NCBI GenBank assembly: GCA_030390025.1
Contig: CM059432.1
Location: forward strand, 71,302,001 to 71,366,000
Length of the DNA: 64,000 nucleotides
Direction: 5' to 3'
Source of the DNA: Squalus acanthias
Taxonomy: Eukaryota
The translations under genes were made by a program, and so were the position numbers. The notes under the pieces were generated by a model that saw nothing but the letters and a program-made list of their open reading frames with translations, was not told where the DNA came from and made no database searches. The first letter of the stretch is position 1; every line of letters begins with the position of its first letter. Positions 3,562-52,165 of this stretch are shown here, one piece after another.

Positions 3562-4371
3562 TGGGGATAGGCTACCGACAAACATCCACTACAAGCCCAC
3601 TGATTCCCACAGCTACCTGGACTACACTTCCTCCCACCCCGCTTCCTGTAAGGACTCTATTCCATTCTCCAAATTTCTCCGTCTCCGCCGCATCTGTTCT
3701 GACGATGCCACCTTCCATACCAGTGCTTCCGATATGTCTTCCTTTTACCTCAACAGAGGATTCCCCCCTACCGTGGTTGACATGGCCCTCGACTGTGTCC
3801 ATTCCACTTCCCGCACTTCTGCTCTCACCCCTTCTCCCTCCCAGAACCACGATAGGGTTCCCCTTGTCCTCAGCTTTCACCCCAACAGCCTCCACATTCA
3901 ATGGATCATCCTCCGCCATATCCTCCACCTCCAGCGTGATCCCACCACCAAACTCATCTTCCCCTCCCCTCCCCTTTCAGCATTCCGAAGGGACCGCTCC
4001 CATCCTCAACACCCTGGTCCACTCTTCAATCACCTGGAACAGCCCCTCCCCTCCCCACGGCACCTTCACGTGCAAGCGCAGGAGATGCAACACCTGCCCT
4101 TTTACCTCCTCCCTTCCCACTGTCCAGGGCCCCAAACACCCCTTCCAGGTGAAACAGCGATTTACTTGTACTTCTTGCAATTTAGTATACTGTATTCGCT
4201 GCTCACGATGCGGTCTCCTCTACATTGGGGAGACCAAACGCAGATTGGGCGGCCGCTTTGCGGAACACCTCCGTTCAGTCTGGAAGGGTGACCCCGAGCT
4301 TCCGGTCGCTTGTCACTTTAATTCTCCGCTCCACTCCCACTCTGACCTCTCGGTCCTCGGCCTCTTACACT
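3562..4371 (+). mobile_element. Penelope-like element, 5' part (RT C-terminus and GIY-YIG endonuclease, frameshifted), interrupted by the provirus
   Basis: NLVYCIRCSRCGLLYIGETKRRL..RFAEH GIY-YIG motif; the sequence continues after 17102. Confidence 0.88.
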
Positions 4372-6018
4372 TGTAAGGGATTCTGACCCTGCGTGTCTCG
4401 CAGCCTGTGAGATTTCACGCGGCTCTGTGCAGCCTGTATGTCAGTGCGGGTCTAGGCCTTGTTGCCTGTTCTGGTCTCCAGCCAGTCTGGGAACACTAGA
4501 CACACCTGTGAGTGGTTCGAATCACTCGCCCTTACGGTTCTAGACACTGGACTTAGATGCGAGAGCAGTAATGGAGATGAAACTCATGTAGACTCGGTTG
4601 AATGGTACGAAATGGAAAATCTTTATTGCATGATACTTAAGATTATGAAATACATGTCATAAGCACAGATTAATGACAGTACAATCTTACAAGCAGTTAT
4701 ATAGTCGATCTTAGGGAAACGAGGAACGAACGGCACACCGTAAATAGGGGCACACATTACAAATATCCTTAATCCTTAAACCCTCCCCTATCAATATCTA
4801 TCCTAACTAGATTCGTAGGATTTCGAGACTCATGCTCACCACTCGTGATAACTCGGAGAAATTCCGAATAGCTGATCGGATGTTTTTCACCGCAGCACCC
4901 ACGTGTCGGTCAGGAGATCTCCTGGTCCCACTTGTTTACTTGCTTCTGCTGCTCCGGCTAGCAGGCTGGACCGTCTGTTGTGATGAAGACCTGTGTTGGT
5001 TGGTTTAACAGGTACTTTTCCGAGCACAGTTCAGTCAATATCATCGATGTGATATGTTCTTTGCAAGTTCGAAGAAGTCTTCCTGGCAAGGAAAACTTGG
5101 CTGTTCGACCTACAGGCGCGGTCGGGATTTACTGACCGTGGCGATGAATATGGTCTTCCTCTCTTCTCATCTCATCTCATCTCGGGCCTTTGGTTCCGCT
5201 GCCAGTTACCAACATAGGTCTTCGTTACGCGACACGAGGTAGATCCGAACGGATCAGAAAGTTCAACAGTCCTTTTCAAAAAGTCAACAGGCAAGCAGGA
5301 GCCCGACTACGAGTACACAGGAGCAGCCACGAGGTTACGAATAAGAGCACAGGATAAGAGCACAGGAGCAGCCACGATGATAAGAGAAAGATGGACGGTT
5401 TGGAGCCTGCAATTATAGTGCAAAATCTTCCGTTTCCCGCCCAACTTTAATGTCCATTCTTTTGTTTAAGGTCTGGCGCTCAAATGTCTTGTATGGGTGA
5501 TCTCCGTTCTTAATGGGTTTCGGGGCTACTCGTAAATGTCTGAGTACCTGTTAATATTTCTCCCATTGTTAAATCGGTCGGTGTTCTCCCTGGAGGGGTT
5601 GTGGGGCTTCCAAGTGTTTTGTATAACTACCTGCTAACGGCTCTCTCATCGTAGAGTCGTTGGGATTTTACATATTAATGTCTTTTGGATGGGCCCTTGA
5701 TTACTCGGTACAATAGCTTTCATTTGTACCTGGGAGACCGATTTCAGTATTTATGTGTATACTGCAAACCCATAATGTCTCGTGTATTATCTTCACTGTG
5801 CTGAATCTTAATCGATCTTGCACAAATGTTTATTGGAACGCCATCTTGTCTGCCTGTCGAAAAGTCTAGAATGTTCTGTCACGAGGTGCGGCGGCCATTT
5901 TACAGGCTGCTTGTGTCCACTTTAAACCTGGCAGCATTCTGCTGAAATAAAAGCTGTTTGAACGAAACTCTGTGTTTTCTCCTTATTAATAAAATCGCGA
6001 TATATTGCGAATTCTACA
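4372..6018 (-). repeat. 3' LTR (1647 bp)
   Basis: Begins TGTAAGGG and ends ATTCTACA on +; preceded on the minus strand by a purine-rich tract. Confidence 0.97.
4622..4627 (-). terminator. Candidate polyadenylation signal in the 3' LTR
   Basis: Minus-strand AATAAA about 250 nt before the LTR end, in AT-rich context. Confidence 0.55.
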
Positions 6019-6030
6019 GTCCCTCCTGTT
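6019..6030 (-). promoter_or_regulatory. Polypurine tract
   Basis: Minus-strand AACAGGAGGGAC immediately before the TGTAG start of the 3' LTR. Confidence 0.75.
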
Positions 6031-6469
6031 GATGCGAATAACTCCGCTTATCGTATCAAAAATCATAGTGGTGAGCAATATTATCTCGATTTCTCTCCGA
6101 ATCCAGCAAATTAATCCCATAACTTTAACCTAGCTAGGGTCTCTGTGTCGTCCTCATTTCCCAAGAAAATTACATTTTATATCACCGTAGGCATTATTTG
6201 CCCTTAAACTTACACCACTTGTTTTCCTTCCCGGCGTAACCAGGCCGATGCCTCTCGTATCACCTGTATATTCATCTTTTATTCAGGGAAAGGAAAAACA
6301 AAACCCAAAACCAAACAATCATTTTTAACTGTAACACCATCACCAAAATAATCAACACCGACTCTTAAAACATGTCGAGTTCCCAAACGTATTTACAATC
6401 TCTGAAAATCATGATCGAGTACAAACTTCCGCGGCGCACGTGGCGAGCGGGAGTGACGCCATTTTCCGA

Positions 6470-8821
6470 TCACACGGTGCTTTCATCGTGCACACGCACG
6501 TAACGTTCTCGCCACTCTCCCGTGTTTTCATGCTTGGTGAGGCGCTTGTCTCTTTTACAATGTACGACCAATAGGTACACTACAATGAAAACTTGGCATA
6601 CGACTAAAATGTGGGAGGCTATTCTGATCCATGAAGGCACTTCAATATTAGTGAACAGATTCCACCACGGTGGAACTACTATATCCAAAATGTCTGTTCC
6701 TATTTCGACAGTTTTCTGCTCTAATGTGTAAAAATGTTTCTGTGACACCGCAACGGCTTTTAAAAGTTTGGTGAGGTGTTCAGGGAGAGGGGGAATGAGG
6801 TATCCAAAATGCGCGACGAATCGCTGCAAGTCGGTGAAATTCTCTTTTACTGTGAGATGAACAGTGGATGGTTCAGGGATTGGGATAATTCGCTGTTGTG
6901 CTACTTGAACTTCCGCCCTGGGTTTAAAACAGAAACTGCTGTCACTCACCGGACACCGGCTACGGTTTCCATGCTGGTAGTGTTGCGCTGCAGTGGTAAC
7001 ACAATATGTTCCACCCCCGATGTATGCTACCTGCGGAGGCACATGATCTTGTGCCATTGCCTCCATGGTGCAATTCATGGACTTGGCGCCAGTCGTTCTG
7101 AACCCACACTGTGGTGTTAAAAAGGCATTCAAGTGCTGGGGGCACAGTATTATGTGTGCTCCCCTGCCACGACAACCAGAGAGATCTGTACCTGTCATCG
7201 TTTGCTCCCAGCGGATGACGTAAGGTGGAACCGCTGCGTAACGAATGTGGGCTCCCCCCTGAATGACACCAATGTTCTCTACCCGATACACCGGGGCGGG
7301 CTTTGCTGTGTCGCCCAAAACTGGCATGCGTAATACTATTCCCATAATAGTATGGTTTGATCGTCCGCAGTCCACGGGGACTGGGTAAGCTTCTGAAGCT
7401 AGCCTGAGCTGGCACGGACTTAATGCGTTCTGAAAAGGGTGGAGCGCCCGCAGGTGTTTGTTACTTATCCAGGACGGGACCAAACCTTGTTTTAAATCCT
7501 CCAAATTACTGCGGCCCTCGCCCAGTAACCACGCCCCGTAAAGCACGCACACCTCGTTCTGCGCGGCTTGATCGGATGCATTCCGATCTTCCCTAATCAG
7601 GGCATTTACCGTCTTTGCATGTTTCTCCAACTCTGCTATAATTTCCTTTAAATGGAGAGTCATGGCTTGGTCCTCGTGTAAACCTGACCCTACCACTTTA
7701 TTCTCATCTGTTAGAATGTCTTTTAATTGTGTCTTTAAACCATTAATCTGGGTCTGCAGCTCCACACTGTCTAGAGCGTTGACCACAGATGTACCCGTGT
7801 TAAAAGCAGTGAACGCATCGTTCACCAAACCCCTTCTTTGCCTCCCTGCTTGATTCAAAACTTCCTGTGGTGCGGTGTACAAACTTGTTTTATCAATTTC
7901 CGCGAAATCGAATTCGTAAAATTGTCTGAACATCTTGGTCAACAGGACCTGATACAACTGTTCCGTCTTTTTGGGGCACCACTCTGGTAACCGCACCTCG
8001 GTGAGATTTAAAATCACCGAGGCCACCGCGTAATGTACTCCCTGAAATAGTATCTGGTCTGTGGGGACCAGTACCAAACCATTCCCGGGTCCCTTACTAG
8101 TTTTAGGGCACCCTTCTTCCTCAGCTAGAACCACCGGAATCGTGGGCGGGGCTTTGCGTGGGCGCGTAATGAGCTCAGTGGCATTTACTGGGATCGGGGA
8201 GAATGGGGCTCCGCACCCCCTGGTGCTCGCATCCCACCTCATCCCCTGTCCGTTATCCTGCCATTGATTAATGAAAAATATGGAGATGCCTTTGGGGCAA
8301 ACGTACTTTGACCCCCACATACATACATATATTCCCTCGTCCGGTTCCCACCATTTGTCCCAACAGACTTTCACTTGTCCGTTTGTCCCCGTAATTGTCC
8401 GATGGGTATTATTACCCAGTCGTTCCCACTCGACCGAAGAGTTCCTCATAGTTTTGCTCAGCTTTCGCAGCCACCACCATCGGCTCAGTGGGACATTCCC
8501 ACTACAAGTCAAACAAATCCGTTTGCCGACGGTGACGCTGATCCTGGGTGCGATGATCCTTACTTTGGGGCACAGTAAAGAAGTCTCTTTGTAGGCAAAC
8601 CCCGATGTGCTAGAATACTCCGTTGAGTTCGTTCCCAGCCATCCTGGCCACCTTCCCTTGTGGAAATAGGTGCTGGTCTCCTCTGCCTCCCGTCTTCCGG
8701 TCCCATCCACCGCGATGGGGGCCGTGTCCCCGGAACATCCAAACACCACGACATCCTTGGTGCGGCCTCGATAGGCCAATCCACATCCGATTGCCGCGAG
8801 CAATACTAGAATTCGTTCCAT
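6470..8821 (-). CDS. env: Env-like class I fusion glycoprotein (783 aa from the Met at 8821; ORF open from 8980)
   Basis: Signal peptide MERILVLLAAIGCGLA; Ig-like segment; furin site RQRR (7832-7843) followed by a fusion-peptide-like segment and heptad repeat; Cys-rich ectodomain; several N-x-S/T sequons; C-terminal TM and short tail. Confidence 0.9.
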   Translation of the reverse strand: MERILVLLAAIGCGLAYRGRTKDVVVFGCSGDTAPIAVDGTGRREAEETSTYFHKGRWPGWLGTNSTEYSSTSGFAYKETSLLCPKVRIIAPRISVTVGKRICLTCSGNVPLSRWWWLRKLSKTMRNSSVEWERLGNNTHRTITGTNGQVKVCWDKWWEPDEGIYVCMWGSKYVCPKGISIFFINQWQDNGQGMRWDASTRGCGAPFSPIPVNATELITRPRKAPPTIPVVLAEEEGCPKTSKGPGNGLVLVPTDQILFQGVHYAVASVILNLTEVRLPEWCPKKTEQLYQVLLTKMFRQFYEFDFAEIDKTSLYTAPQEVLNQAGRQRRGLVNDAFTAFNTGTSVVNALDSVELQTQINGLKTQLKDILTDENKVVGSGLHEDQAMTLHLKEIIAELEKHAKTVNALIREDRNASDQAAQNEVCVLYGAWLLGEGRSNLEDLKQGLVPSWISNKHLRALHPFQNALSPCQLRLASEAYPVPVDCGRSNHTIMGIVLRMPVLGDTAKPAPVYRVENIGVIQGGAHIRYAAVPPYVIRWEQTMTGTDLSGCRGRGAHIILCPQHLNAFLTPQCGFRTTGAKSMNCTMEAMAQDHVPPQVAYIGGGTYCVTTAAQHYQHGNRSRCPVSDSSFCFKPRAEVQVAQQRIIPIPEPSTVHLTVKENFTDLQRFVAHFGYLIPPLPEHLTKLLKAVAVSQKHFYTLEQKTVEIGTDILDIVVPPWWNLFTNIEVPSWIRIASHILVVCQVFIVVYLLVVHCKRDKRLTKHENTGEWRERYVRVHDESTV

Positions 8822-8834
8822 CCTTCCTTGGTTC

Positions 8835-8856
8835 CTGTGATCAGATAGAATGAGGT
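8835..8856 (-). promoter_or_regulatory. Candidate env splice acceptor
   Basis: CTCATTCTATCTGATCACAG|G, 13 nt upstream of the signal-peptide ATG (AGGATGG). Confidence 0.5.
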
Positions 8857-9111
8857 AGCCAGCCTCGCAAGAGTCTCTGGCTTCTGTGAAGGGTAAGCGG
8901 GTCCCCTGACCTCGCCTCACGTAAACTTCAACGTTCGCTGAATAAACTTTAACTAAACCTAACTTTAAAGCTCCCATCATTTTATCGTTTTCTGTTAAAA
9001 TTAAAACTGCAAACTTAACCTTATTAAAACTATAAACTTAACCTTGAACTATGAACTTAAAACTTAAAACTTATTACTATACAGTGCCGCCCGTTCTCAG
9101 GGCGGCCCCCT

Positions 9112-12100
9112 TTAAATTCTGAGAAGGCTGCTGCGAGCTCTTCCCGACGGTGGGAGGGCACTGACCCTTCCCTCTGATCTGCCGCAGCCTGTTGCTGCAC
9201 TGACCCTTCCCTCTGATCTGCCGCAGCCTGTTGCTGCCGCGATGTGGCCGGCCTGTATCTGGGTTATCTTAACCTTAACTCTACGCCTTGGGGCAGTCTG
9301 GGGACATGACCACATCCTCCTGGGCTGGGGTTCTCTACTTGACCTACGGGGAGTTGCTATGGGCGGGGGTTCCGTGACGGACGGACCGGGTTCCGAGACT
9401 TCCATCGGGATGACCTGGGGTTCCACCACAGTCGCTGGCTCCGCCTCCGCTGACTCCGCCTCCCTAACCTCGGGGCTTGCAGTTTGTGGCTCCGCCCTGC
9501 TCGGCCCAGCAGGCGGCCCTTCACTCGTGATCTCTGCCTCCCCCGAGGACGGGACGTTCAAAGCGGGCGGCCACATCTCTGGGAGCCACACCGGTACTCT
9601 CTGTGCTCCCATAGCGGCTGGCCCTGCCTCCCCTAGCTCCTCCCTCCTGTCTTCGGGACCTGTAGCTTGTGTGTCCACCCTGTGTGGATCTCTATCTGCA
9701 GCCCCCATTCCCTCCAGACCGTTCCTCAGAAACCACCCGTCGTCATCATTATCCTCATCTGCACTATCCTCATCTGACCCGAGTACCCTGAATTCTTCCT
9801 CATCTAACCCCCAATTCCAGAAAAACGCTGCATGATCGTCCGGGATGTCCCTTCCCCTGATGCAAGCTGCTATGCCTGCCTGTGTGCCTTGTGGTCCTAC
9901 CTGGGGCTGTGCTTTCCCACTGGCGGGATTTACCCCTGTAGTTTTCCCTTGCGCACCTGGCTGGTACAGTTTGCATTGGTTTATGTGGAACCACTTAGTG
10001 CGCCGAGGTACTTTTACGGCGTAAACCATGGGACTCGCCTTGTCTACAATGTTGTAGGGTCCCATATACAGTGGTTCCAGACTCCCTACTCTGGCGTAGT
10101 TTCTGACCATGACCTGGTCTCCTACTTCCCACTCCCGCGTTTTGCGGGGTTCCAGCAACAAGCGATTGCCCTGATGCTGCCTTCCCATGTTCCCAGCCGC
10201 CTGCTCATAAACCTGCTTCAGGCGCTCCAAGAGAGTCTGGGCGAACTTGTCCCTGCTTATCTCTTGGAGCTGACCCTCAGTGAGCACCGGCGCTAGCACA
10301 TGGGTGGGGGTTCGCATGAGCCTCCCAGTCATTACCTCGTGCGGGGAGTACCCCGTACTTTTTGACTGACTGGCCCGGACCCCCATGAGGACTAAAGGCA
10401 GAACTTCCGCCCATTTTTGGGGCGAGTTCCTAGTCTCTTTCCTCAATTTCTCCTTCAGGGTCCGGTTCATACGTTCAACAATCCCGGATGACTGGGGATT
10501 GTGTGCTACGTGCCACTTCCCTTCAATGCCCAAAAGCATGAGGGTGTTCTGCATCACCTGGCCGGTGAAATGACTCCCTTGGTCTGACTCCACAAAACGG
10601 GGAAGTCCCCACCGCGAGAACCCTTCCCGGACCAAGATTTTTGCTGTACCCAGTGCCGTAGCTGTTCGACAGGGGAAGGCTTCCACCCACTTGGAAAACA
10701 CATCCACCAAGACGAGGCAATACTTATAACCTCCCTGGGTGGTGGGCAGGGGTCCTATATAGTCGATCTGTATCGACTGCCATGGTCCCTCTACCCTTCT
10801 TACGTGTCCCATGGGCACCTTCCTTTTCTGGGGGTCTGGGTTGTTTGCAGCGCACACAAGACAGTTTGCACAGAACTCGCGGACTTGTTCCCTGAGCCCT
10901 GGCCACCATCCCGCTTGCTCTACCCGTTGCCAGGTAACCTCGGGCCCGGGGTGCCCTGCCCCTGGTCCCTCGTGAGCCAACTGGAGGAATTCCCTCCTGT
11001 GCTGCTGCGGCACAACCCACTGCTCCTCGCGGAACAGCATGCCTTCCTTAACTGAGAGGGTTGCCGTACTGTACGGACCTTCTACCTGTCTCCCCTCAGC
11101 AATGGTTTTTAGGACTGCTTTTAGGGCGGGATCCTGGGCTTGGACGGTCTTAAGGTCTAGGGGCAATGCTACCCTGGTGTTCCCGGGATTCCCGTCCCTG
11201 CCTCGAACCGCTGCTATGGGTCTGGTCCCATAGGGGTTCCAGAAAATGCCGTTGCGGGCACCTTCCCTGGCTAGCGCATCCGCCTGCTGGTTGCCCTCCC
11301 CACGGGGCTCTGTGGAGGAGTGAGCTTTCACCTTATGGATGAAAATCTCTCCTTCCTCCCCTACTGCTGCTGCTAAGATCTTTTCCAGCAAAGGCTTCAC
11401 CGTTAAAGGTCGCCCGTCCGCGGAGGTGTATCCACGGCGGGACCAAATGGCCAGGTATTCCGTGCACGAATTGCAGGTGAACATACTGTCCGAGCAAATC
11501 GTGTATGGGGTTGGGAAAATGTCTGGGTGGGTCACAACGTACACCACGGCAGACAGCTCAGCCTGCTGCGCGCTCATGGTGCTAGGGAGCTTGATCGCCA
11601 GGGCAAGGTCTGCCGCAGGGTCATAAACTCCACACCCTGTGAGTCGCTCGCCAGCAGATACTGTGCTAGACCCATCAACATAAATCTCGCGCCCAGTGGG
11701 ATGTATCCCGGCCCGTAAACCTATGTTGACGTCCCACACCCCTTCCACCGAACACCGGTGGGCTGTACCGGGGTATACCAAATTGGCCGCAAGCCTGGGC
11801 TCGCAAAGACCTTTTACTCTAAGATCCAACTGGGAGAGAAGAAGGGTCCAACGCGCAATGCGCGCGCTGCTTACGGTCCCGTCTTTAATCCTCCCATCCA
11901 GAAGCATCTTAGTTGGTGTGTGATGTGTGAGGAGAGTGATGGGAGAGAGCCCTGTGAAGATCGCTGATCTTTTCACAGCCCAATGCGTGGCTAAAAGGTG
12001 CCTTTCGCAATTGGAGAAACTTCTCTCCACATCCGTTAACACCCTGGATGAATAGACAACCGGCCTCAGCTTGCCGTGACGCTCTTGGAGCAGTACGGCG

Positions 12101-13635
12101 CTTAAGCTGTCTCCGCTGGCAGCTACCTCCAGGAAAAACTCCTTCCCCCCATCTATGGCCCCTAAGGCTGGCGCGGTCTGCAGATCCCTTTTTAACTTCT
12201 CGAAGGCTGCTTGGCAGCCCTCGTCCCAAGACCACTCCACCCCCTTATGGAGGAGTCGGAGGAGCGGCGCTGCTGTGGCCGCATAATCTTCGATAAAATC
12301 CCTGCAGTAACCGGTCAGTCCCAAGAAGGACCTCACACCCCTTACGTTGTTGGGAATCGGTAATTCTTGCACCGACTCCCTCCTTGCCTTGTCTATGGCT
12401 CTTTCCCCAGCGCGTATGGTCAGTCCCAGGAATTTTACTTCCCGCTGACCGATACGTGCTTTCTTAGGGTTTATTTTAAAACCCTTTCTCGCTAACAGCT
12501 CCAATAACTCGTCCAGCAGTGGTCCATGCTCCTCCCTTGAGTCCGTAAATAGGAGCAAATCATCCACATACTGCACTATCTGATTGGGCTGACTAAACTC
12601 CTTTAAACTTCCTGCCATACACTGATGAAAAATACTGGGGCTATTGTGGAAACCCTGTGGCAGACAGTTCCATGTGTACTGTTGTCCTTTAAAAGTAAAG
12701 GCAAACTTGTACTGGTCCTCTCGCCGCAGCGGGATGGACCAAAAACCGTTCGAGATATCCAGCACCGTGAACGTGGTCGCGGACGCTGGGATGCTCCCTA
12801 TTAGGTCAGCAACTGCTGCTACCGTGGGCGCGCAGGCGGGAATGTTACTGTTAAGGACTCTGTAGTCCACCGTGGCTCTCCACGAATTATCCGGCTTCCT
12901 AACCGGCCATAATGGGGAGTTCACGTGTGTGGCTATCGGCCTCAACACGCCCTGCTGCACCAAGGAAGACATTGCTGTCTCCATATCGGGTTCTGCTTCT
13001 TTGGGGAAGTTATACTGCTTTTGGGGTCGGGTCATGGGGTCCCCATCTACGCTGACCTCAAACCCGACCACTCTCCCACAATCGTGCTTGTGGGTTGCAA
13101 ACGCGTGCATATTATCTGACACGTACGTTTGCATGTCCGTTGGGACATCTGCGACCATAAGCCTGAGGTCGTAGCCTCCGGATGGCTGTACGGTACACAG
13201 GACCCCTGTTTCTTCCTCCCCCGGAATCACTATTACCTCGCCTTTTTCACCTTTAGCCCCCCAGAGACAGTGATTTCTGAGGTCCACGAGGATCCCGTGT
13301 CCCGATAGGAGATCAGACCCGAGAATACCTCTTCCACCCCCCTCCTGCCATGCCATCAGTATACACTTCCACTTAAGGCGAAGTGTTCCTAAACGAATGG
13401 ATAGCGGAAGGGAAAACGTGCCAGCCTGTTCTTTTCCTGTGAACCCCGCTAACGTGAATGGGACCTTGGTAGATAGCGGCGAGTCAAAAGGGTTATCTGT
13501 ATGGATTATGGTGCAAGAAGCTCCCGTGTCCAACAAATAACTACCCCTCTGTTTCTCTACCTCCATCTCCACCAAAGGTCGCTTCCACGCATCATAGCTA
13601 AGCGGACACAGGTAGACGGGCTGCGCCGGTTCTAG
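9112..13635 (-). CDS. pol: Pol (protease-RT-degenerate RNase H tether-RNase H-integrase-C-terminal extension), in frame with gag and probably made as Gag-Pol by stop readthrough
   Basis: PR LLDTGAS; RT LDISNGFW, LPQGFHNSP, YVDD; RNase H YVDGS/QAEL/SDS/NQQADALA; IN HHCC, D-D-E (IDYIGP, SDQGSHF, VERMNRTLK) and GPY. The frame is open from the codon after the gag TGA. Confidence 0.95.
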   Translation of the reverse strand, partial: LEPAQPVYLCPLSYDAWKRPLVEMEVEKQRGSYLLDTGASCTIIHTDNPFDSPLSTKVPFTLAGFTGKEQAGTFSLPLSIRLGTLRLKWKCILMAWQEGGGRGILGSDLLSGHGILVDLRNHCLWGAKGEKGEVIVIPGEEETGVLCTVQPSGGYDLRLMVADVPTDMQTYVSDNMHAFATHKHDCGRVVGFEVSVDGDPMTRPQKQYNFPKEAEPDMETAMSSLVQQGVLRPIATHVNSPLWPVRKPDNSWRATVDYRVLNSNIPACAPTVAAVADLIGSIPASATTFTVLDISNGFWSIPLRREDQYKFAFTFKGQQYTWNCLPQGFHNSPSIFHQCMAGSLKEFSQPNQIVQYVDDLLLFTDSREEHGPLLDELLELLARKGFKINPKKARIGQREVKFLGLTIRAGERAIDKARRESVQELPIPNNVRGVRSFLGLTGYCRDFIEDYAATAAPLLRLLHKGVEWSWDEGCQAAFEKLKRDLQTAPALGAIDGGKEFFLEVAASGDSLSAVLLQERHGKLRPVVYSSRVLTDVERSFSNCERHLLATHWAVKRSAIFTGLSPITLLTHHTPTKMLLDGRIKDGTVSSARIARWTLLLSQLDLRVKGLCEPRLAANLVYPGTAHRCSVEGVWDVNIGLRAGIHPTGREIYVDGSSTVSAGERLTGCGVYDPAADLALAIKLPSTMSAQQAELSAVVYVVTHPDIFPTPYTICSDSMFTCNSCTEYLAIWSRRGYTSADGRPLTVKPLLEKILAAAVGEEGEIFIHKVKAHSSTEPRGEGNQQADALAREGARNGIFWNPYGTRPIAAVRGRDGNPGNTRVALPLDLKTVQAQDPALKAVLKTIAEGRQVEGPYSTATLSVKEGMLFREEQWVVPQQHRREFLQLAHEGPGAGHPGPEVTWQRVEQAGWWPGLREQVREFCANCLVCAANNPDPQKRKVPMGHVRRVEGPWQSIQIDYIGPLPTTQGGYKYCLVLVDVFSKWVEAFPCRTATALGTAKILVREGFSRWGLPRFVESDQGSHFTGQVMQNTLMLLGIEGKWHVAHNPQSSGIVERMNRTLKEKLRKETRNSPQKWAEVLPLVLMGVRASQSKSTGYSPHEVMTGRLMRTPTHVLAPVLTEGQLQEISRDKFAQTLLERLKQVYEQAAGNMGRQHQGNRLLLEPRKTREWEVGDQVMVRNYARVGSLEPLYMGPYNIVDKASPMVYAVKVPRRTKWFHINQCKLYQPGAQGKTTGVNPASGKAQPQVGPQGTQAGIAACIRGRDIPDDHAAFFWNWGLDEEEFRVLGSDEDSADEDNDDDGWFLRNGLEGMGAADRDPHRVDTQATGPEDRREELGEAGPAAMGAQRVPVWLPEMWPPALNVPSSGEAEITSEGPPAGPSRAEPQTASPEVREAESAEAEPATVVEPQVIPMEVSEPGPSVTEPPPIATPRRSSREPQPRRMWSCPQTAPRRRVKVKITQIQAGHIAAATGCGRSEGRVSAATGCGRSEGRVSALPPSGRARSSLLRI
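9158..9237. repeat. 39-bp tandem duplication at the end of pol
   Basis: GCACTGACCCTTCCCTCTGATCTGCCGCAGCCTGTTGCT x2, frame-preserving (13 aa). Confidence 0.9.
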
Positions 13636-15447
13636 TCATGGGGTACTATTAGACGGTCCTGCGGCACCTACGGGGCCGGTTGCGACCGCCACCTGTCCAC
13701 GTGCACTCAAGATTAGATTGCGCATGGCTCCTAACACTACTTCGAGGTCATCGGGAGGGGTGGGTGCCTTAGCTTCCTTAGCCGGGACAGGCGCCTGGGC
13801 TCGGACCGCGGGATTTTTATCCTTGGAATCCTTCCAAGGGTTCCTGCAATGCTTGCGCCAGTGCCCTGTCTTCCCACACCCGTAACAAGCATTACCTGCC
13901 TGTGGGGCGCGATTACCCTCCTGATGCCACTCTCTTTGATACGGGGCTGCGGGTCGTACCTCATGTACTCTTCCCTTAAGGGGACGTGTTGCCATACCCC
14001 TTATATTGCGATATCCTAACGTGAGTCGATTCAAGACCGACTCTTCCGTAATGTTGGGGTCATTGGGATCAAACCATGCTTTTGCCTGCTCTCTGACGGC
14101 TGGTAAACTGTTGGCTATTATGCACCTAAGCCAATGAGTTAAAGCGGTGCCTTCCACATCTTCGCGCTCGGGCGCACCTAGGCAGCTGCGCTCATATACT
14201 GGCCACAGCCTGTCGGCAAAAACCTTCGGGGGTTCTCCCTCCATCTGCACTGTCTGTCCCACTCTAGCAAACGGACCTTCATCATTCGCCCCCAACACTT
14301 CCAGGACCTCATCCCTCAATTCCTCATAAGTCTTGGTTCCCCTCTTGCTCTCGCCTGAGAGACACTGAAGGACCGAGCTGTCTAATGAGAACAGCAGCAT
14401 TTTTGCTGTCTCCCCATCATCGCAGCCGTTAATGGCTGCGGCTTGCTCAACTTCTCTGAAATGTACGGAAGGGTCGTCTGACTCGGTCAGCTTCCGTACG
14501 TGATTTATCATAGCTCTCAGCTGATGTGAGCTGTGAGGCAACACCAGCTGTCCGAGGAGATCCCCCGGTTCTTCCCCACCGTTTCTGTTTGGGCCCCTTT
14601 TAATACCCGTTACTGGATACAACGGTCCCTTTCCTACTTCTTTTTCAATGGGCTCTTTTGTTTCTTCCATTGCTTCCTCCCTTACCCAGGTTTCCGAATA
14701 GCTGGGTGGCGCGGAGGGCGCAGTGGCTACTACTTCTTCTGCTTTACTTGGTGGGGATTTCTTAAACTTCTCACCTACTAACGGCTGGTGTGCTGACGGA
14801 CTGATCAGGCACACCATGCCGTTCGCTTTGTTTACGGCCTTCTTGAGGTGCTCTATCTCCCTTTGGCAGGCGCTATGGTCGGCTCCCTCAAACTTATCCT
14901 CAAGGGCCAACTTATATGCCGCCCTAACCCCCGTTAAGCTCTCTTCTTGAGTTCTTATCTGGGCAGCTTGGCGGTTACATCTTTCCTTTAACCTGCTCTC
15001 ATTTAACTTTGCTTCAGTGACCTGGCACTCGAGATAATCTATCCTGGTTTTAAGGTGACTGGAGATTTCCTGGCTTTCTTGGTGCAACTCATTTAAATTC
15101 TTAATGAGCACCTCCCCTCCAGAAACCTTCTCATCCATTTCTCCCTCTAAGTGACTGATTCGAGCTACTAGCGCTGTAATGGTCTGGTTTGAAATCTGAA
15201 CCTGCCTTTTGTAACACATAAGCCAGACTGCTTTCTCAAGTGTCTTTCTATGTTCTTTACTATCTGTCCACCTTTCGGCTGCCTCTAGCGGGCTTTTATC
15301 CGCTAACAATTCACTTATCCACTTCTTAGTTAGATTAACCTTTCCAAACACATAATCTGCTATCTTTTCCTGCATAACATTTCGTACAGTCATTCCAAAG
15401 TCTAACACACTACCCTCTCGCTGCCAGTGTCCTGCCGCGGTCGCCAT
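13636..15447 (-). CDS. gag: Gag polyprotein (603 aa from the first true ATG)
   Basis: ATG in AAAATGG context at 15447; N-terminal coiled-coil-like region; PSAPPSY late domain (14698-14718); CCHC knuckle CYGCGKTGHWRKHC (13846-13887); ends at TGA. Confidence 0.92.
   Translation of the reverse strand: MATAAGHWQREGSVLDFGMTVRNVMQEKIADYVFGKVNLTKKWISELLADKSPLEAAERWTDSKEHRKTLEKAVWLMCYKRQVQISNQTITALVARISHLEGEMDEKVSGGEVLIKNLNELHQESQEISSHLKTRIDYLECQVTEAKLNESRLKERCNRQAAQIRTQEESLTGVRAAYKLALEDKFEGADHSACQREIEHLKKAVNKANGMVCLISPSAHQPLVGEKFKKSPPSKAEEVVATAPSAPPSYSETWVREEAMEETKEPIEKEVGKGPLYPVTGIKRGPNRNGGEEPGDLLGQLVLPHSSHQLRAMINHVRKLTESDDPSVHFREVEQAAAINGCDDGETAKMLLFSLDSSVLQCLSGESKRGTKTYEELRDEVLEVLGANDEGPFARVGQTVQMEGEPPKVFADRLWPVYERSCLGAPEREDVEGTALTHWLRCIIANSLPAVREQAKAWFDPNDPNITEESVLNRLTLGYRNIRGMATRPLKGRVHEVRPAAPYQREWHQEGNRAPQAGNACYGCGKTGHWRKHCRNPWKDSKDKNPAVRAQAPVPAKEAKAPTPPDDLEVVLGAMRNLILSARGQVAVATGPVGAAGPSNSTP
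15429..15446 (-). promoter_or_regulatory. Primer-binding site, tRNA-Ser-like
   Basis: TGGCGACCGCGGCAGGAC starts 5 nt after the 5' LTR. It begins TGG and partly matches the complement of vertebrate tRNA-Ser 3' ends as I recall them (TGGCG....CGGCAGGA). The tRNA identity is uncertain. Confidence 0.65.
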
Positions 15448-15451
15448 TTTC

Positions 15452-17098
15452 TGTAAGGGATTCTGACCCTGCGTGTCTCGCAGCCTGTGAGATTTCACGC
15501 GGCTCTGTGCAGCCTGTATGTCAGTGCGGGTCTAGGCCTTGTTGCCTGTTCTGGTCTCCAGCCAGTCTGGGAACACTAGACACACCTGTGAGTGGTTCGA
15601 ATCACTCGCCCTTACGGTTCTAGACACTGGACTTAGATGCGAGAGCAGTAATGGAGATGAAACTCATGTAGACTCGGTTGAATGGTACGAAATGGAAAAT
15701 CTTTATTGCATGATACTTAAGATTATGAAATACATGTCATAAGCACAGATTAATGACAGTACAATCTTACAAGCAGTTATATAGTCGATCTTAGGGAAAC
15801 GAGGAACGAACGGCACACCGTAAATAGGGGCACACATTACAAATATCCTTAATCCTTAAACCCTCCCCTATCAATATCTATCCTAACTAGATTCGTAGGA
15901 TTTCGAGACTCATGCTCACCACTCGTGATAACTCGGAGAAATTCCGAATAGCTGATCGGATGTTTTTCACCGCAGCACCCACGTGTCGGTCAGGAGATCT
16001 CCTGGTCCCACTTGTTTACTTGCTTCTGCTGCTCCGGCTAGCAGGCTGGACCGTCTGTTGTGATGAAGACCTGTGTTGGTTGGTTTAACAGGTACTTTTC
16101 CGAGCACAGTTCAGTCAATATCATCGATGTGATATGTTCTTTGCAAGTTCGAAGAAGTCTTCCTGGCAAGGAAAACTTGGCTGTTCGACCTACAGGCGCG
16201 GTCGGGATTTACTGACCGTGGCGATGAATATGGTCTTCCTCTCTTCTCATCTCATCTCATCTCGGGCCTTTGGTTCCGCTGCCAGTTACCAACATAGGTC
16301 TTCGTTACGCGACACGAGGTAGATCCGAACGGATCAGAAAGTTCAACAGTCCTTTTCAAAAAGTCAACAGGCAAGCAGGAGCCCGACTACGAGTACACAG
16401 GAGCAGCCACGAGGTTACGAATAAGAGCACAGGATAAGAGCACAGGAGCAGCCACGATGATAAGAGAAAGATGGACGGTTTGGAGCCTGCAATTATAGTG
16501 CAAAATCTTCCGTTTCCCGCCCAACTTTAATGTCCATTCTTTTGTTTAAGGTCTGGCGCTCAAATGTCTTGTATGGGTGATCTCCGTTCTTAATGGGTTT
16601 CGGGGCTACTCGTAAATGTCTGAGTACCTGTTAATATTTCTCCCATTGTTAAATCGGTCGGTGTTCTCCCTGGAGGGGTTGTGGGGCTTCCAAGTGTTTT
16701 GTATAACTACCTGCTAACGGCTCTCTCATCGTAGAGTCGTTGGGATTTTACATATTAATGTCTTTTGGATGGGCCCTTGATTACTCGGTACAATAGCTTT
16801 CATTTGTACCTGGGAGACCGATTTCAGTATTTATGTGTATACTGCAAACCCATAATGTCTCGTGTATTATCTTCACTGTGCTGAATCTTAATCGATCTTG
16901 CACAAATGTTTATTGGAACGCCATCTTGTCTGCCTGTCGAAAAGTCTAGAATGTTCTGTCACGAGGTGCGGCGGCCATTTTACAGGCTGCTTGTGTCCAC
17001 TTTAAACCTGGCAGCATTCTGCTGAAATAAAAGCTGTTTGAACGAAACTCTGTGTTTTCTCCTTATTAATAAAATCGCGATATATTGCGAATTCTACA
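15452..17098 (-). repeat. 5' LTR (1647 bp)
   Basis: Direct repeat of 4372-6018 at offset 11080, with no difference found in a line-by-line visual comparison; adjacent to PBS and gag start. Confidence 0.97.
16488..16525 (-). promoter_or_regulatory. Candidate LTR core promoter (GC/E2F-like box, ETS-like CGGAAG, TATAAT); duplicate at 5408-5445
   Basis: Minus strand reads GGGCGGGAAACGGAAGATTTTGCACTATAATT; two YY1-like motifs lie upstream in U3. An alternative TATATAA lies near 15778-15784. Confidence 0.45.
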
Positions 17099-17102
17099 CA
17101 CT

Positions 17103-17520
17103 GTTCCAATGAAGCTCAATGTAAGCTTGCGGAACAGCACCTCATCTTTCGATTAGGCACTTTACAGCCTTCTGGACTCAACATTGAGTTCAACAATTTC
17201 AGACTATAACCCCTGCCCCTATAATATCACATGGGAGCTGTTGATGATTCTGCCATCCCCATTTGCAACATTTAATCTTTCCTGCCTTGCACCTTAGCAC
17301 AGACCGTCCCTTTTGTTCTTTCCTCCCCTCCCCCCTTTCCCTGCCTCTGCACCTGCTTAAAACCTGTTACATCTCTAACTTTTTCCAGTGCTGACGAAGG
17401 GTCACAGACCTGAAACATTAACACAGTTTCTCTCTCCATGGATGCTGCCTGGCCTGCTGAGTGTTTCCAGCATTTTCTGTTGTTATTTCAGATTTCCAGC
17501 ATCCGCAGTATTTTGCTATT
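17103..17520 (+). mobile_element. Penelope-like element, 3' part with pLTR region
   Basis: Continues the same peptide (EQHLIFRLGTLQPSGLNIEFNNFR), matching the uninterrupted copy at 30894-31601. Confidence 0.85.
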
Positions 17521-20768: not shown

Positions 20769-21082
20769 TATGGATAATCCACTCTTTAACATCAAACTCA
20801 TAAGTGGATATATCTAAGATTTCCTGTGCAGCTGTTATGATAGCTAACTGCTGGTGGAATAATTCCCACATTCCCCACGGTCAACTGTTACAAATTTGTC
20901 AATGCCAATGAAAGTCTCCGCAAGCAGGAGCACTTGTAGAATTTTCAAATCAGTATGGAAGTAATCCCTACGGGTTGCTTATTTCCTTCCATTAACAGAG
21001 TGACTCCCGCCAACGATCGGAAGCTGCGCAGAAGCGTACTGTGCATTAATCTGGAACCAGAGGCTTCTTTTTTTTCCACAGT

Positions 21083-21291
21083 GCATTTTTCCTCACAGCC
21101 TGCTCTCTCCCAGCATTTTTCCTCACAGCTCGCTCTCTCCCGGCATTTTTCCTCACAGCCCGCTCTCTCCTGGCATTTTTCCTCACAGCCCGCTCTCTCC
21201 CGGCATTTTTCCTCACAGCCCGCTCTCTCCCGGCATTTTTCCTCACAGCCCGCTCTCTCCCGGCATTTTTCCTCACAGCCCGCTCTCTCCC
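21083..21291. repeat. Minisatellite, 7 x 30 bp
   Basis: Unit GCATTTTTCCTCACAGCCCGCTCTCTCCCG with few substitutions. Confidence 0.95.
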
Positions 21292-21970
21292 TGTGAACAG
21301 TGAGCCTGCTGGAAGATTCAGTTAAAAATAAGCAATTGCTATGGCATGACACCAAACCTTCAGCAGGCTTTTTATCTTGCTCAACAGTTTTCAAGGCCAC
21401 TTTCATCACATAAAATGTATTCCTCAGTGCATTTTGCTGGTAGTATCTGGCTTTACACATTTATGTACTGACATGCTATCTTTCCTCAAAATGAACTGTG
21501 ACATCTTTTGAGATGGACAATTATTTGATTTTATTAAAAGATTTCAACATGATGGATGAGAAGGATTTATAAGTAATCAGAACCTTGATATTCTATTACC
21601 ACTTTCATTTCACAAGTTTGTACCTAATTCCATGTGTTTTGGAGATAATACATCATCACATATATGGAATTCTATGAAATTCTTGGCAACTCAAAGGTAT
21701 ACTGGAATATCGGGCATACAGTAAAACTTAAGTTATAATTTTGTGCAGAATTATCAATTCAATTTTTAAATGTAATCTTTCTTCATTATTCTAATAGTTA
21801 TTTACCTCCCCATTTTTAGTTTCCTTTGTACCAGTCTAAGAATGGGCAGGTAGCTAGGAATCCACCAATACTGCTTTGGCCAGCAAGTAAGTAAATCGGC
21901 CCTATTTGGAGCCAGTAAACCATGTCAAACTTGCATTCTGTCTTTCCCTCGAATGCTTGGGAAACCCTTT

Positions 21971-48945: not shown

Positions 48946-49058
48946 TATGTTTATACGCACAGCTTCCATCAGCAGTCCACCACTGGAAAGCAAGCAGGAA
49001 TGTTAAAAGCCCAGGCTGAGTTTTGCCCTCTTAAATACAGGAATCCTGTGGTTAATTG

Positions 49059-49795
49059 AGGGTGGAGGGATGGTGAGGGTGGAGGGGTTGGTGGGGTGGG
49101 GAGGGAGAGGATGGAGGGGGTGGGGGGGTTGGAGGGGTGGGGATGGAGGGGATGGGGGGGTGGAGGGGGTGGGAGTGGGGGGTCAGGGGGTGGGAGTGGG
49201 GGGGAGGGGCTGGAGGGGGTGGGAGTGGGGGGAGGGGGTGGGAGTGGGGGGGAGGGGGTGGAGGGGGGGTGGGGGAGGGGGTGGGGGTCGGGATGGGTGG
49301 AGCGGGGGGGGTGGAGGGGTTGGAGGGGGGGGTGAGGGAGGGGATGGAGGGGTGGGGGGGTTGGAGGGGTGGGGAGGGAGGGGGTGGGGGATGGAGGGGG
49401 TGGGAGTGGGGGGGGCAGGGGGTGGAGGGGATGGGGGGGTGGAGGGGGTGGGAGTGGGGGTGGGGGGGTGGAGGAGGTGGGAGTAGGGGGGGCAGGGGGT
49501 GGAGGGGATGGGGGGGTTGGGGTCGGGGTGGAGGGGGTGGGGGGTGGAGGGGGTGGGAGTGGGGTGGAGGGGGTGGGAGTTGGGGGGAGGGGGGGGTGGA
49601 GGCGGTGGGGGGAGGGGTGGGTGGGGGTGGTGGGGGGATGGAGCGGGGGGGGTGGAGAGGTTGGAGGGGTGAGGAGGGAGGGGGTGGAGAGGGTGGGAGC
49701 GGGGGGGGGAGGGGGTGGAGGGGGAGGGGCTGCAGAGGGTGGGGGTGGTGGAGGGGGTGGGGGTCGGGGTGGGTGGGGTGGGTGGGGGTGATGGT
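49059..49795. repeat. G-rich low-complexity tract inside a MITE-like element (about 49011-50210)
   Basis: About 735 bp of GGAGGGGGT/GGGAGT variants, with almost no C on the + strand. Confidence 0.92.
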
Positions 49796-52165
49796 GCTGT
49801 TTTAGTGTCCAAGGTAGGGGAGCTTTAAACTTTTCTTGTGGGGCCCAGAGGAGCACTTCTGCTCCTCCTGGCCCCACAAGGAAATTAAAATAACTTACCT
49901 TTAATGGCCTCTTCTGGTCCTGGATTCTCTTCCTACTGTCTTCATTTGATGGCAAAGCCGCAGTGGCTTCCCTGCTCAGGCCAGAGTTAAAATTGTGTTT
50001 GGGGCCCAATGACGTCGTCAGACTCTGATCTACACATTTAAAGAACGACCCCGCTGGCTTCAGGCAGGTGCTTTTGCCATTTGCACAGAAGAGCGGGTTA
50101 AAATCAGGATCACCACAAAACAGCTGGGAATTCAGTGGGTAAGTCATCCAGGACCTTTTAACTGCCCACCTGCTGGGTTCTTCCAGGCAAGTAGGGTTAA
50201 AATCGCCCCCATAGATACCAAACACATCAGCGTGTTTTAAAGGAAAAGGATATTCTGTTATGAAAGGAGCACCATCTGCATGGAAATGTATTGAGCAAAT
50301 CTATTCAGTTATTTAATAAACAATTTGCACTTATATAATGCCTCATCACATCTATCAGAGACGTTTGAAACCACTTTACATGCAAAGAATTATTTTGAAG
50401 TACAGTGGAGTAGATTCTGACTTCGAGTGATAGTGTAAAATGGGTGATAGTGAATCAGCAGCCCGTTTTACATCTCTCCAGATTTTTATTTCCATTGACT
50501 TCACTGTGTGCTCCTCCTGGCTCCACAGCAGTTGTGAAGAACGTTGCCGTCCCCAGCTCATCCACCCTCCTGAACGCCCCTTCTCGATTGCCCCCCACCC
50601 TCTCGATCACCACCCCTTCCCTTCCAATTGTCTCCCTGAGGGCTGCTGCCGGGGAGGCAGCCGGGCCAGCCTCTTCCTCATGGGACTGCCGAGCTACCTC
50701 TGGACACCTGATTAGTGCCCCTAGCTCGCTGACAGTATGCTGATAAGGCCAGAGGGCAAATTTCAGGTGAGCCTCAGGCCTCCAGCTTCTGGCATGGGCT
50801 CCCAACGCGCAGCCTATTTCAGGCCTGAAAATGAGCCAAAACAAATTCGCACCCCATGATATTAATGACATAAATTGAACAGAATTGCCTCAGAATTGTA
50901 TGAAGTCATCATGATGGTAATGATTGAATGCTATTCTCTTTCATGAAGACTGTGTCTCTTTAAGCTTGATAAACATTCTCAGTTTCTGTCTCTATCAAGT
51001 CACAGCTGTATTCAATCCGAAATGTAGCAAGTTACAATCTTTCATCTCCCTGTTTTATGAATACTAACAGTAATCCTTTGAGCTTTTTTCTATTGTTCTT
51101 TCTAAACCCAAATGCACCAAACTACATAGCCCTCCTCCTGCCTGCATTCCCACTGGATTCAAATCAAAACTCATTGCAGGCTCCTACTCTAATTCAGTTA
51201 TGACTAAGGTCACTCAGAACGAAGAAATTCCTTACCTCCCTCAGTTTTTTTCTTTCTCTTACACTCTTCAGGCTTTTGAAACCTAAGGTTGGCATCACCT
51301 ACATCACAATTTACCTTGTAAAATTATATTATCAATTTAGTAGTACATTTTTATTATTTTCACCCTTGGTGGTGTCCTGCACAATAAACTCTAAGGTCTG
51401 TATAACTGAAACCCTTGCAGCGGGATTAGCAGCAACTGGAATACTGCTCAAGTGATTGGCTAAGCACTAATTAATTTTTTTGGAACTGACTAAAGTACAA
51501 ATGATAACAATGTAACTTGGATTATGTAAATCATGTTTAGAATTAATGGAATTAACTTTTTAAATTGCAATCTAATTAAAATGTAAATTGACGTGAATTA
51601 ATTATATTAATGATATCATTTACATATCACATTTTAAACAAATTAGGATTATTTCAGTGAGGCTCGATGTAGACCATGTTTTCCTGAATGCAGCCAGCCC
51701 AGTGTCGGCAGCATTAATGAAGACCAATTTTGGGAAGGACACCTGATTACTTGTGTATGTAAAGGGGCTAATAACTGTTTCAGGCACAGGCCCTGACTTC
51801 TCTTTTTCTGCCTTCACCAATAAGGTGGGCAGCGCACTCCCAGCATGAAATGTGTGCACGCCGCCACCTGAAATATTGGATGTTTAGTTGCTCATTTTAC
51901 ACCAAATCATCCAATTTCTAAGCATTTCTCTGTTACCCAGCTTCAAGTAATTAACATCATCTTAGATCTTAAGAAATACAGCACAGAGTTTACACTAAAC
52001 AGAAGTACATAGAAGTTACAACATGGAAACAGACAACTCAGGCAAACTAGTTTGTGCTGGCATTTATTCACGTTGGTGAAAATAACATAAGTCTGAAGAT
52101 AAAAGAAAAAGGAGATGAGAGTAAAGGTCAGACCAATGTAAGGAACAAGGGTAACTCAAACGGTC

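Follow-up and report, generated by a model that had tools for sequence, protein, structure and literature searches.

The minus strand of a 64,000-nucleotide window from Squalus acanthias (assembly GCA_030390025.1, contig CM059432.1, positions 71,302,001 to 71,366,000; all coordinates below are those of the window, the whole stretch of DNA analysed) carries an endogenous retrovirus (ERV), here called the Squalus element, in which gag and pol lie in one reading frame on either side of a single UGA stop codon followed by CUAG. The architecture of this junction suggests that Pol is probably produced as a Gag-Pol fusion by readthrough of the stop. Features of the junction are given first, followed by the remaining parts of the element, including its long terminal repeats (LTRs).

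13632..13638, minus strand: candidate readthrough site, in-frame UGA followed by CUAG (from sequence and translation; no variant there among the rows shown for four sequencing runs)
13413..13633, minus strand: predicted unbranched extended stem-loop, with a firm core at 13623-13422, its base 5-22 nt past the stop and 70-82 pairs (from folding)
13598..13619, minus strand: pyrimidine-rich tract and YAG, a possible splice acceptor inside the predicted stem (74% pyrimidine in 19 nt)
13639..15447, minus strand: gag, 603 codons, with a coiled-coil-like N-terminal part, a capsid-like middle and one CX2CX4HX4C knuckle (from translation and homologues)
9112..13635, minus strand: pol, 1,507 codons, encoding protease, reverse transcriptase (RT; YVDD), tether, RNase H, integrase and a long low-complexity tail (from translation and Pfam)
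6470..9037, minus strand: env-like open reading frame (ORF), 855 codons, first ATG at 8980, with a furin-like RQRR and a predicted paramyxovirus-F-like fold
8993-8992, minus strand: candidate env splice acceptor, T-rich
15452..17098, minus strand: 5' LTR, 1,647 bp, with TG...CA ends, 100% identical to 4372-6018 and with a 4-bp target-site duplication on the outer flanks
4372..6018, minus strand: 3' LTR, 1,647 bp (from identity with the 5' LTR)
15429..15446, minus strand: primer-binding site, beginning with TGG 5 nt inside the LTR end (from sequence)
6019..6030, minus strand: short polypurine tract adjoining the 3' LTR

The gag-pol junction

On the minus strand the junction reads CCA TGA CTA GAA, where the TGA occupies 13638-13636 and the CTAG 13635-13632. 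The frame from 15447 to 9112 comprises 2,112 translation steps and contains exactly two stops: one closes the frame, and the other is this TGA, which follows residue 603. An earlier note on this DNA had described the same gag end, a frame open from there into the protease, and a lone UGA as the only internal stop in 2,111 codons, all of which was borne out by the minus-strand sequence, the ORFs and the translation. Taken from stop to stop, the two ORFs share one common frame (15531-13636, 631 aa, and 13635-9112, 1,507 aa), and the protease motif LLDTGAS is found approximately 35 codons 3' of the UGA.

The heptamer TGACTAG occurs three times in the window when both strands are counted. Within the gag-pol frame, CTAG accounts for 12 of 6,333 4-mers (0.19%) and CTA followed by G for 8 of 2,112 codons, so a CUAG context directly after the lone stop is improbable by chance (approximately 0.2-0.4%). 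The first ATG of pol is codon 24, within the protease, and residues 16-48 past the UGA align with residues 5-37 of the HIV-1 protease; internal initiation would thus cut the first protease strand. As the protease starts 5' of the first pol ATG, ribosomes must enter the pol frame further upstream, either through the stop or via splicing.

An in-frame stop 25-39 codons 5' of the protease motif was found in all eight reference retrovirus loci compared. The junction context was UAG-G in the reference loci L001-L003, L008, L010, L012, L014 and L016, whereas it is UGA-C in the Squalus element. The earlier note had drawn a contrast with gammaretroviruses, which read through UAG. Type II readthrough signals have CUA or CGG after the UGA; the junction agrees with them in UGA followed by CUA, a long open frame past the stop and a stop retained in relatives, and it departs from the type III gammaretroviral signal, which is defined by UAG-G.

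Retention of the stop across copies and relatives

Copies of the element were sampled via sequencing runs, of which 20 of the 24 listed (five species labels, eight studies) contain the stretch. Contigs from the runs X1, X7, X14 and X17 (one per species label) were aligned over 13150-14250, and the resulting variant table covers the best-supported 40 of 164 variable places and 19 of 65 loose ends. None of these 40 places falls within 13632-13638, while the table does include places at which most of the depth disagrees with the present copy (13600, 13750 and 13896). Three listed contigs span the stop, differing by 1, 4 and 6 other letters. Among the listed loose ends, those on the gag side gather at 13638-13640 (five contigs, two runs) and those on the pol side at 13604 (four contigs, three runs), which suggests that diverged copies change up to the stop and retain the stop together with the next bases. 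The variants in gag lean clearly towards synonymous changes (12/25, p 0.007-0.045). The summed contig depth of X1, approximately 100,000, fits a high-copy family and is not a copy number. Two X1 contigs skip 342 bases across the junction (13484-13827) and represent deleted copies without the stop and the start of the protease.

Only two homologues of Gag were found (P0187 and, from the skate Rhinoraja longicauda, P0188), which align end to end with the Squalus protein at 47% and 53% identity, and both terminate within one residue of the Squalus gag end. Of three further members of the skate cluster, two share this exact end and one breaks off early. No fused Gag-Pol of the family was present among the 120 listed Pol matches (828-2,638 aa); among the seven closest of these, six start within the protease or immediately after it, and the seventh is a gene model that extends further upstream. 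A search of viral contigs with a single-protein query retrieved no related DNA, and in metagenome contigs an alignment-based search returned 97 pattern matches with no relatives among them and a 20-nt junction motif gave no matches.

Since no variant was seen at 13632-13638 among the best-supported places of the four runs and the Gag relatives end at the same place, the sequences indicate that the stop is family-wide. The earlier note had proposed checking TGACTAG in other copies and relatives, and had held that a private nonsense mutation would undo its reading; the stop turned out to be retained in the contigs of the four runs, with the Gag relatives ending at the same place, and is not a private mutation of this copy.

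A predicted extended hairpin downstream of the stop

Folding of the 241-nt stretch past the stop gave a single unbranched rod with a predicted energy of -92.4 kcal/mol, which none of 200 shuffles reached (z -4.74). The predicted hairpin is approximately 200 nt long (190-220 nt), with its far edge at 13429-13413. Weak pairs are predicted from the third base past the stop and firm pairs from 12 nt past it. In the firm helices, where pair probabilities are close to 1, 13623-13619 pairs with 13426-13422 and 13612-13607 with 13441-13436. The length of the folded window matters: stretches of 170-220 nt past the stop gave z values of -2.8 to -6.4, while windows of up to 130 nt folded no better than shuffles (z near 0). 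Folding the downstream 100 nt, as the earlier note had recommended, would thus miss the hairpin, and the interval it had marked, 13576-13645, contains the stop but covers just the first quarter of the predicted structure.

In a local-fold scan of the 9.1 kb of coding sequence, the rod ranked second of 22 structures (>120 nt, z < -3) and was the only unbranched structure with at least 50 pairs and z < -4. Codon positions with such a rod 4-30 nt downstream number 18 of 2,914 (0.6%), and those with any structure of z < -5 number 122 of 2,914 (4.2%). Eight of the 40 best-supported variants fall inside the rod; where a rod variant was seen in at least three runs, it was unpaired in the model in four of five cases and kept its pair in the fifth, with 75% of the rod positions being paired. 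Rfam returned nothing meaningful in the element. A predicted unbranched stem of 38 pairs (z -5.3) was also found 10 nt past the UAG-GGA of L014, a viral contig of 10,207 nt, and extended stems may be present in other aquatic retroviruses too.

Classification and further features of the element

RT trees were built with FastTree (69 rows) and with IQ-TREE (47 rows, without beta- or lentivirus rows and leaving out L014, L016, L017 and L018, for which no pol frame was called), and were in broad agreement. In the IQ-TREE tree the Squalus element was placed inside a 36-row retrovirus clade together with gamma-like, foamy-like and L001 rows (support 100/97), apart from the gypsy rows and from P0038, the sole Loki-like row, called so from motif comparison with published lokiretrovirus proteins. 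A class I-like clade (10 rows, 99/99) excludes the element and the foamy-like rows form a clade of their own, the element itself falling into a basal polytomy that also contains L001 as well as ERVs of frog and coelacanth, which are 50-52% identical to it. L001 has the same layout, with ORFs of 625 and 1,398 aa and the stop context UAG-GGC; from this context and its genome length, we take L001 to be snakehead retrovirus (SnRV). UAGGGC is the context given for that virus in a 2026 review (PMC13517186), and the elephant shark is a known carrier of SnRV-like ERVs (PMC4422223).

The env product matched the L001 Env weakly in a profile comparison (70% probability, E 3.9e-5), and the best Foldseek matches of its structural model (mean pLDDT 67) were F proteins of paramyxo- and pneumoviruses (E 1.4e-10). 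The pol domains, primer-binding site, LTRs and polypurine tract, together with an RT inside the retrovirus clade, assign the element to the Retroviridae. With lokiretroviruses it shares an F-related Env, but its RT is not found in the Loki/Odin sister clade. Membership of the lokiretroviruses was rejected because the RT lies outside the P0038 branch, and membership of the gamma- or epsilonretroviruses because it lies outside the class I-like clade. A spumavirus with spliced pol, for which a separate frame and an AUG of its own would be expected, was rejected as well, given that pol is in the gag frame and its first AUG is inside the protease. By sequence, the element is probably a basal, SnRV-like retrovirus with a predicted F-like envelope, and it is not a lokiretrovirus.

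Pfam recognized protease, RT, a degenerate RNase H (the tether), RNase H and integrase in Pol, and no named family in gag or env. In the present copy pol, env and both LTRs are unbroken, and the LTRs are unusually long and fully identical, which points to a very recent insertion. The primer-binding site and the first ATG of gag overlap (15429-15447), and the annotated skate Gag has the same starting point. Past the integrase, the C-terminal approximately 280 residues of Pol (9112-9900) are acidic, proline-rich and of low complexity, and include a direct repeat of 15 residues close to the terminus. Elsewhere in the window, a GC-rich region of short-period repeats (49031-50300) and a 30-bp tandem array (21053-21322) were observed.

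Expression of Pol

We consider it likely, with a probability of roughly 0.8, that Pol is made as a Gag-Pol fusion by readthrough of the UGA, the signal being UGA-CUAG together with the predicted hairpin. Most ribosomes would end at the UGA and release Gag. The CUAG would weaken recognition by release factors and allow a basal leak (1.3-1.5% in human cells), which the base of the stem, lying near the mRNA entry channel of the ribosome, could raise several-fold. A near-cognate tRNA would then insert a residue at the UGA, for which Trp, Cys and Arg are the candidates. A few percent of the ribosomes would in this way pass the stop, giving the low ratio of Gag-Pol to Gag that retroviruses need.

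This reading builds on the layout of the element, on a lone stop that has the CUAG context and is retained across the family, and on a protease that starts 5' of the first pol AUG, to which folding adds the predicted hairpin; the step to readthrough is taken by analogy with alphaviruses and mammalian UGA-CUAG genes. UGA-CUA alone supports 1.5% readthrough (PMC4132726), and for UGACUAG in human genes values of at least approximately 1.3% are given (PMC13517186; PMC4132726). UGACUA is also the type II viral context, used by Sindbis virus, chikungunya virus and PSIV (PMC13517186), where extended stems are found 8-12 nt 3' of the stop (PMC3159437; PMC13517186), and the downstream stems of alphaviruses, of 126-177 nt, increase readthrough 3- to 9.5-fold (PMC13517186; PMC3159437). 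The proposal of the earlier note that Pol is made through a leaky UGA of the cellular type thereby stands as far as readthrough is concerned, which is the best reading of the junction, but "cellular-type" is too narrow a term for a context that is equally the type II viral one and that is followed by a predicted extended 3' stem as in alphaviruses.

Several points weigh against readthrough or against parts of the evidence for it. When the gag-UGA-pol junction of Tca2 was placed in a reporter, it did not direct readthrough (PMC2194720). Pol-less derivatives, instead of full diverged families, may be the source of the pol-side loose ends, the variant table is limited to 40 of 164 places and 19 of 65 loose ends, contigs lose rare variants, and the excess of synonymous changes is weak in the pol part (7/15, p 0.05-0.15). 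Stable folding is general in the element: the 81 windows of 220 nt average z -1.46, and five of them reach z -4.7 or lower (12 shuffles each). Moreover, the hairpin criteria were chosen after the hairpin had been seen. Three of the eight rod variants, each from a single contig of a single run, break model pairs, and no two-sided compensatory change was found among the eight. Finally, a YAG at 13599-13598 is preceded by the 74% pyrimidine tract, with a TGAC 38 nt before it as a possible branch point.

These last elements could be assembled into a spliced pol RNA like that of foamy viruses, in which the TGAC, the tract at 13619-13600 and the acceptor AG at 13599-13598 would serve to splice an exon from further upstream onto the beginning of the protease. 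The acceptor-like YAG is the better of two such sites in 13800-13450, lies near the predicted protease start and is retained by the common variant at 13600, and in the RT tree the element belongs to a basal group that includes foamy viruses. Against this, no AUG is found between the acceptor and the first protease strand, an extra AG intervenes between branch point and acceptor, and the tract is C-rich, interrupted by G and located within the predicted stem, in contrast to the T-rich env acceptor at 8993. Splicing would moreover not require gag and pol to be in one frame. The contigs of the four runs contain no joint at the site (contigs being informative on presence and not on absence), and a contig of X17, an RNA run by guess only, continues unspliced across it. 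Overall, we regard a spliced origin of Pol as improbable.

A smaller chance still is given to the UGA being an ordinary stop, with Pol arising by reinitiation, from an internal promoter in the junction or from a non-AUG start, and with the hairpin serving packaging or the control of splicing. Tca2 offers a precedent, its junction containing an internal promoter (PMC2194720), and many other stable local structures exist in the element. However, the first AUG is inside the protease, and an ordinary stop would leave both the CUAG context and its recurrence in lokiretroviruses (see below) unexplained. Largely refuted is the idea that the TGA arose by nonsense mutation in a formerly fused gag-pol and was spread by a defective lineage dependent on helper Pol. 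Fused forms do exist in related groups, since the annotation gives a fused gag-pol for 10 of the 24 consensus entries of lokiretroviruses, and rare copies with a sense codon would be invisible in contigs. Yet the position of the stop is common to Gag proteins of 47-53% identity, the pol, env and LTRs of this copy are intact, and the listed Pol matches include no fused form of the family. That the UGA is read as selenocysteine, for which it is an established codon, or is bypassed by frameshifting hardly merits consideration, as there was no match to a SECIS family of Rfam in 4000-17500 up to E 1 and the form of slippery heptamer tested for does not occur in 13800-13500, and as many stops close the other two frames and pol shares the frame of gag.

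Occurrence of the candidate signal in other retroviruses

Readthrough between gag and pol is textbook knowledge, and UGA at this position has been reported for SSSV, ZFERV and RMEV (PMC13517186) and for XtERV-S (PMC8278194), so the novelty implied by the gammaretroviral contrast of the earlier note was overstated. According to the 2026 review, epsilonretroviruses and unclassified aquatic retroviruses are without verified readthrough or identified cis-signals (PMC13517186). Tests of UGA-CUA readthrough with an extended stem-loop are so far known from RNA viruses and cellular genes alone.

The supplement of the lokiretrovirus paper (PMC7947760) was subjected to a motif search, with frames counted by eye in a stored text that is incomplete and whose line breaks can hide matches. 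TGACTAG was found in 17 places, of which four are in-frame gag-pol junctions 5' of the protease motif (Ofa, Cne, Pyo and Sau) and 13 lie elsewhere. A second motif, viewed in 10 of its 12 places, revealed an in-frame UGA-CUA-A at two more junctions (Dcl and Lro), and in Loki-Pfl, annotated as a fused gag-pol, a sense codon takes the place of the stop and precedes a CUA. An in-frame UGA-CUA(G/A) junction is thus present in at least six of the 14 lokiretrovirus consensus entries with a separate pol. Term searches found no mention of readthrough or of the stop codon in the main text of that paper or in its follow-up (PMC9040795), and none of translational readthrough in PMC12440569, PMC10435555, PMC12193657 or bioRxiv 2023.10.26.564294. 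No paper on a retrovirus with UGA-CUAG and an extended stem was found in literature searches that covered few subscription papers and no Repbase notes.

A wider hypothesis, which we put forward tentatively and consider rather doubtful at present, is that UGA-CUA readthrough with an extended stem-loop is widespread, and possibly ancestral, for Gag-Pol in deep-branching vertebrate retroviruses. It would then be common to the shark and skate lineage and the lokiretroviruses, would flip to a sense codon in some lineages as the alphavirus opal codon does, and the gammaretroviral UAG-pseudoknot would be a later specialization. The Squalus family offers a concrete, high-copy and testable signal, with a stop, a context and a predicted stem, and would link the recoding of retroviral Gag-Pol with the UGA-CUAG class known from alphaviruses and cellular genes. 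Its presence in published lokiretrovirus sequences, unremarked in the main text, makes this context relevant to how the Gag-Pol switch evolved. Annotation pipelines that drop ERVs with an in-frame TGA, or that call pol from its first AUG, would misjudge this family.

Comparison with known readthrough systems

The Squalus junction resembles those of gamma- and epsilonretroviruses and snakehead retrovirus in having gag and pol in one frame with one stop 25-39 codons before the protease site (PMC13517186). Those viruses carry the type III context UAG-G, in contrast to UGA-CUAG and a predicted long hairpin in the Squalus element, and the gammaretroviruses have a compact H-type pseudoknot past an 8-nt purine spacer (PMC13517186). 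The aquatic retroviruses SSSV (UGAAGA), ZFERV (UGACGA) and RMEV (UGAAGU) (PMC13517186) and XtERV-S (PMC8278194) likewise have UGA as the junction stop, with readthrough presumed, and have fish or amphibian hosts. They differ from the Squalus element in pol lineage or env class, and none of the three given contexts is UGA-CUA; a downstream structure is not described for any of the four viruses in the available parts of these two papers (PMC13517186, PMC8278194). Lokiretroviruses share with the Squalus element the tether plus RNase H, an F-like Env and, in six consensus sequences, the in-frame UGA-CUA(G/A) at the gag-pol junction. They differ in an RT outside the Retroviridae grouping of the Squalus element, and cartilaginous fish are not among the hosts given for them (PMC7947760).

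Among cellular genes, the short C-terminal extensions made by readthrough differ from the 1,507 enzyme codons and the predicted long stem that follow the Squalus stop. MDH1 and LDHB belong to the cellular genes with UGA-CUAG. The identical heptamer is also found in OPRL1, OPRK1, AQP4 and MAPK10 (PMC4132726).

The alphavirus nsP3-nsP4 junction is similar in its UGA-CUA, in a predicted long stem-loop just past the stop and in a polymerase encoded downstream (PMC3159437; PMC13517186). In both cases, moreover, a related lineage carries a sense codon where the stop would be, here Loki-Pfl. In alphaviruses a basal stem of 10-12 bp closes a long loop, whereas an unbranched rod of 190-220 nt with 70-82 pairs is predicted for the Squalus element, whose signal differs further in being located at the gag-pol junction of a retrovirus.

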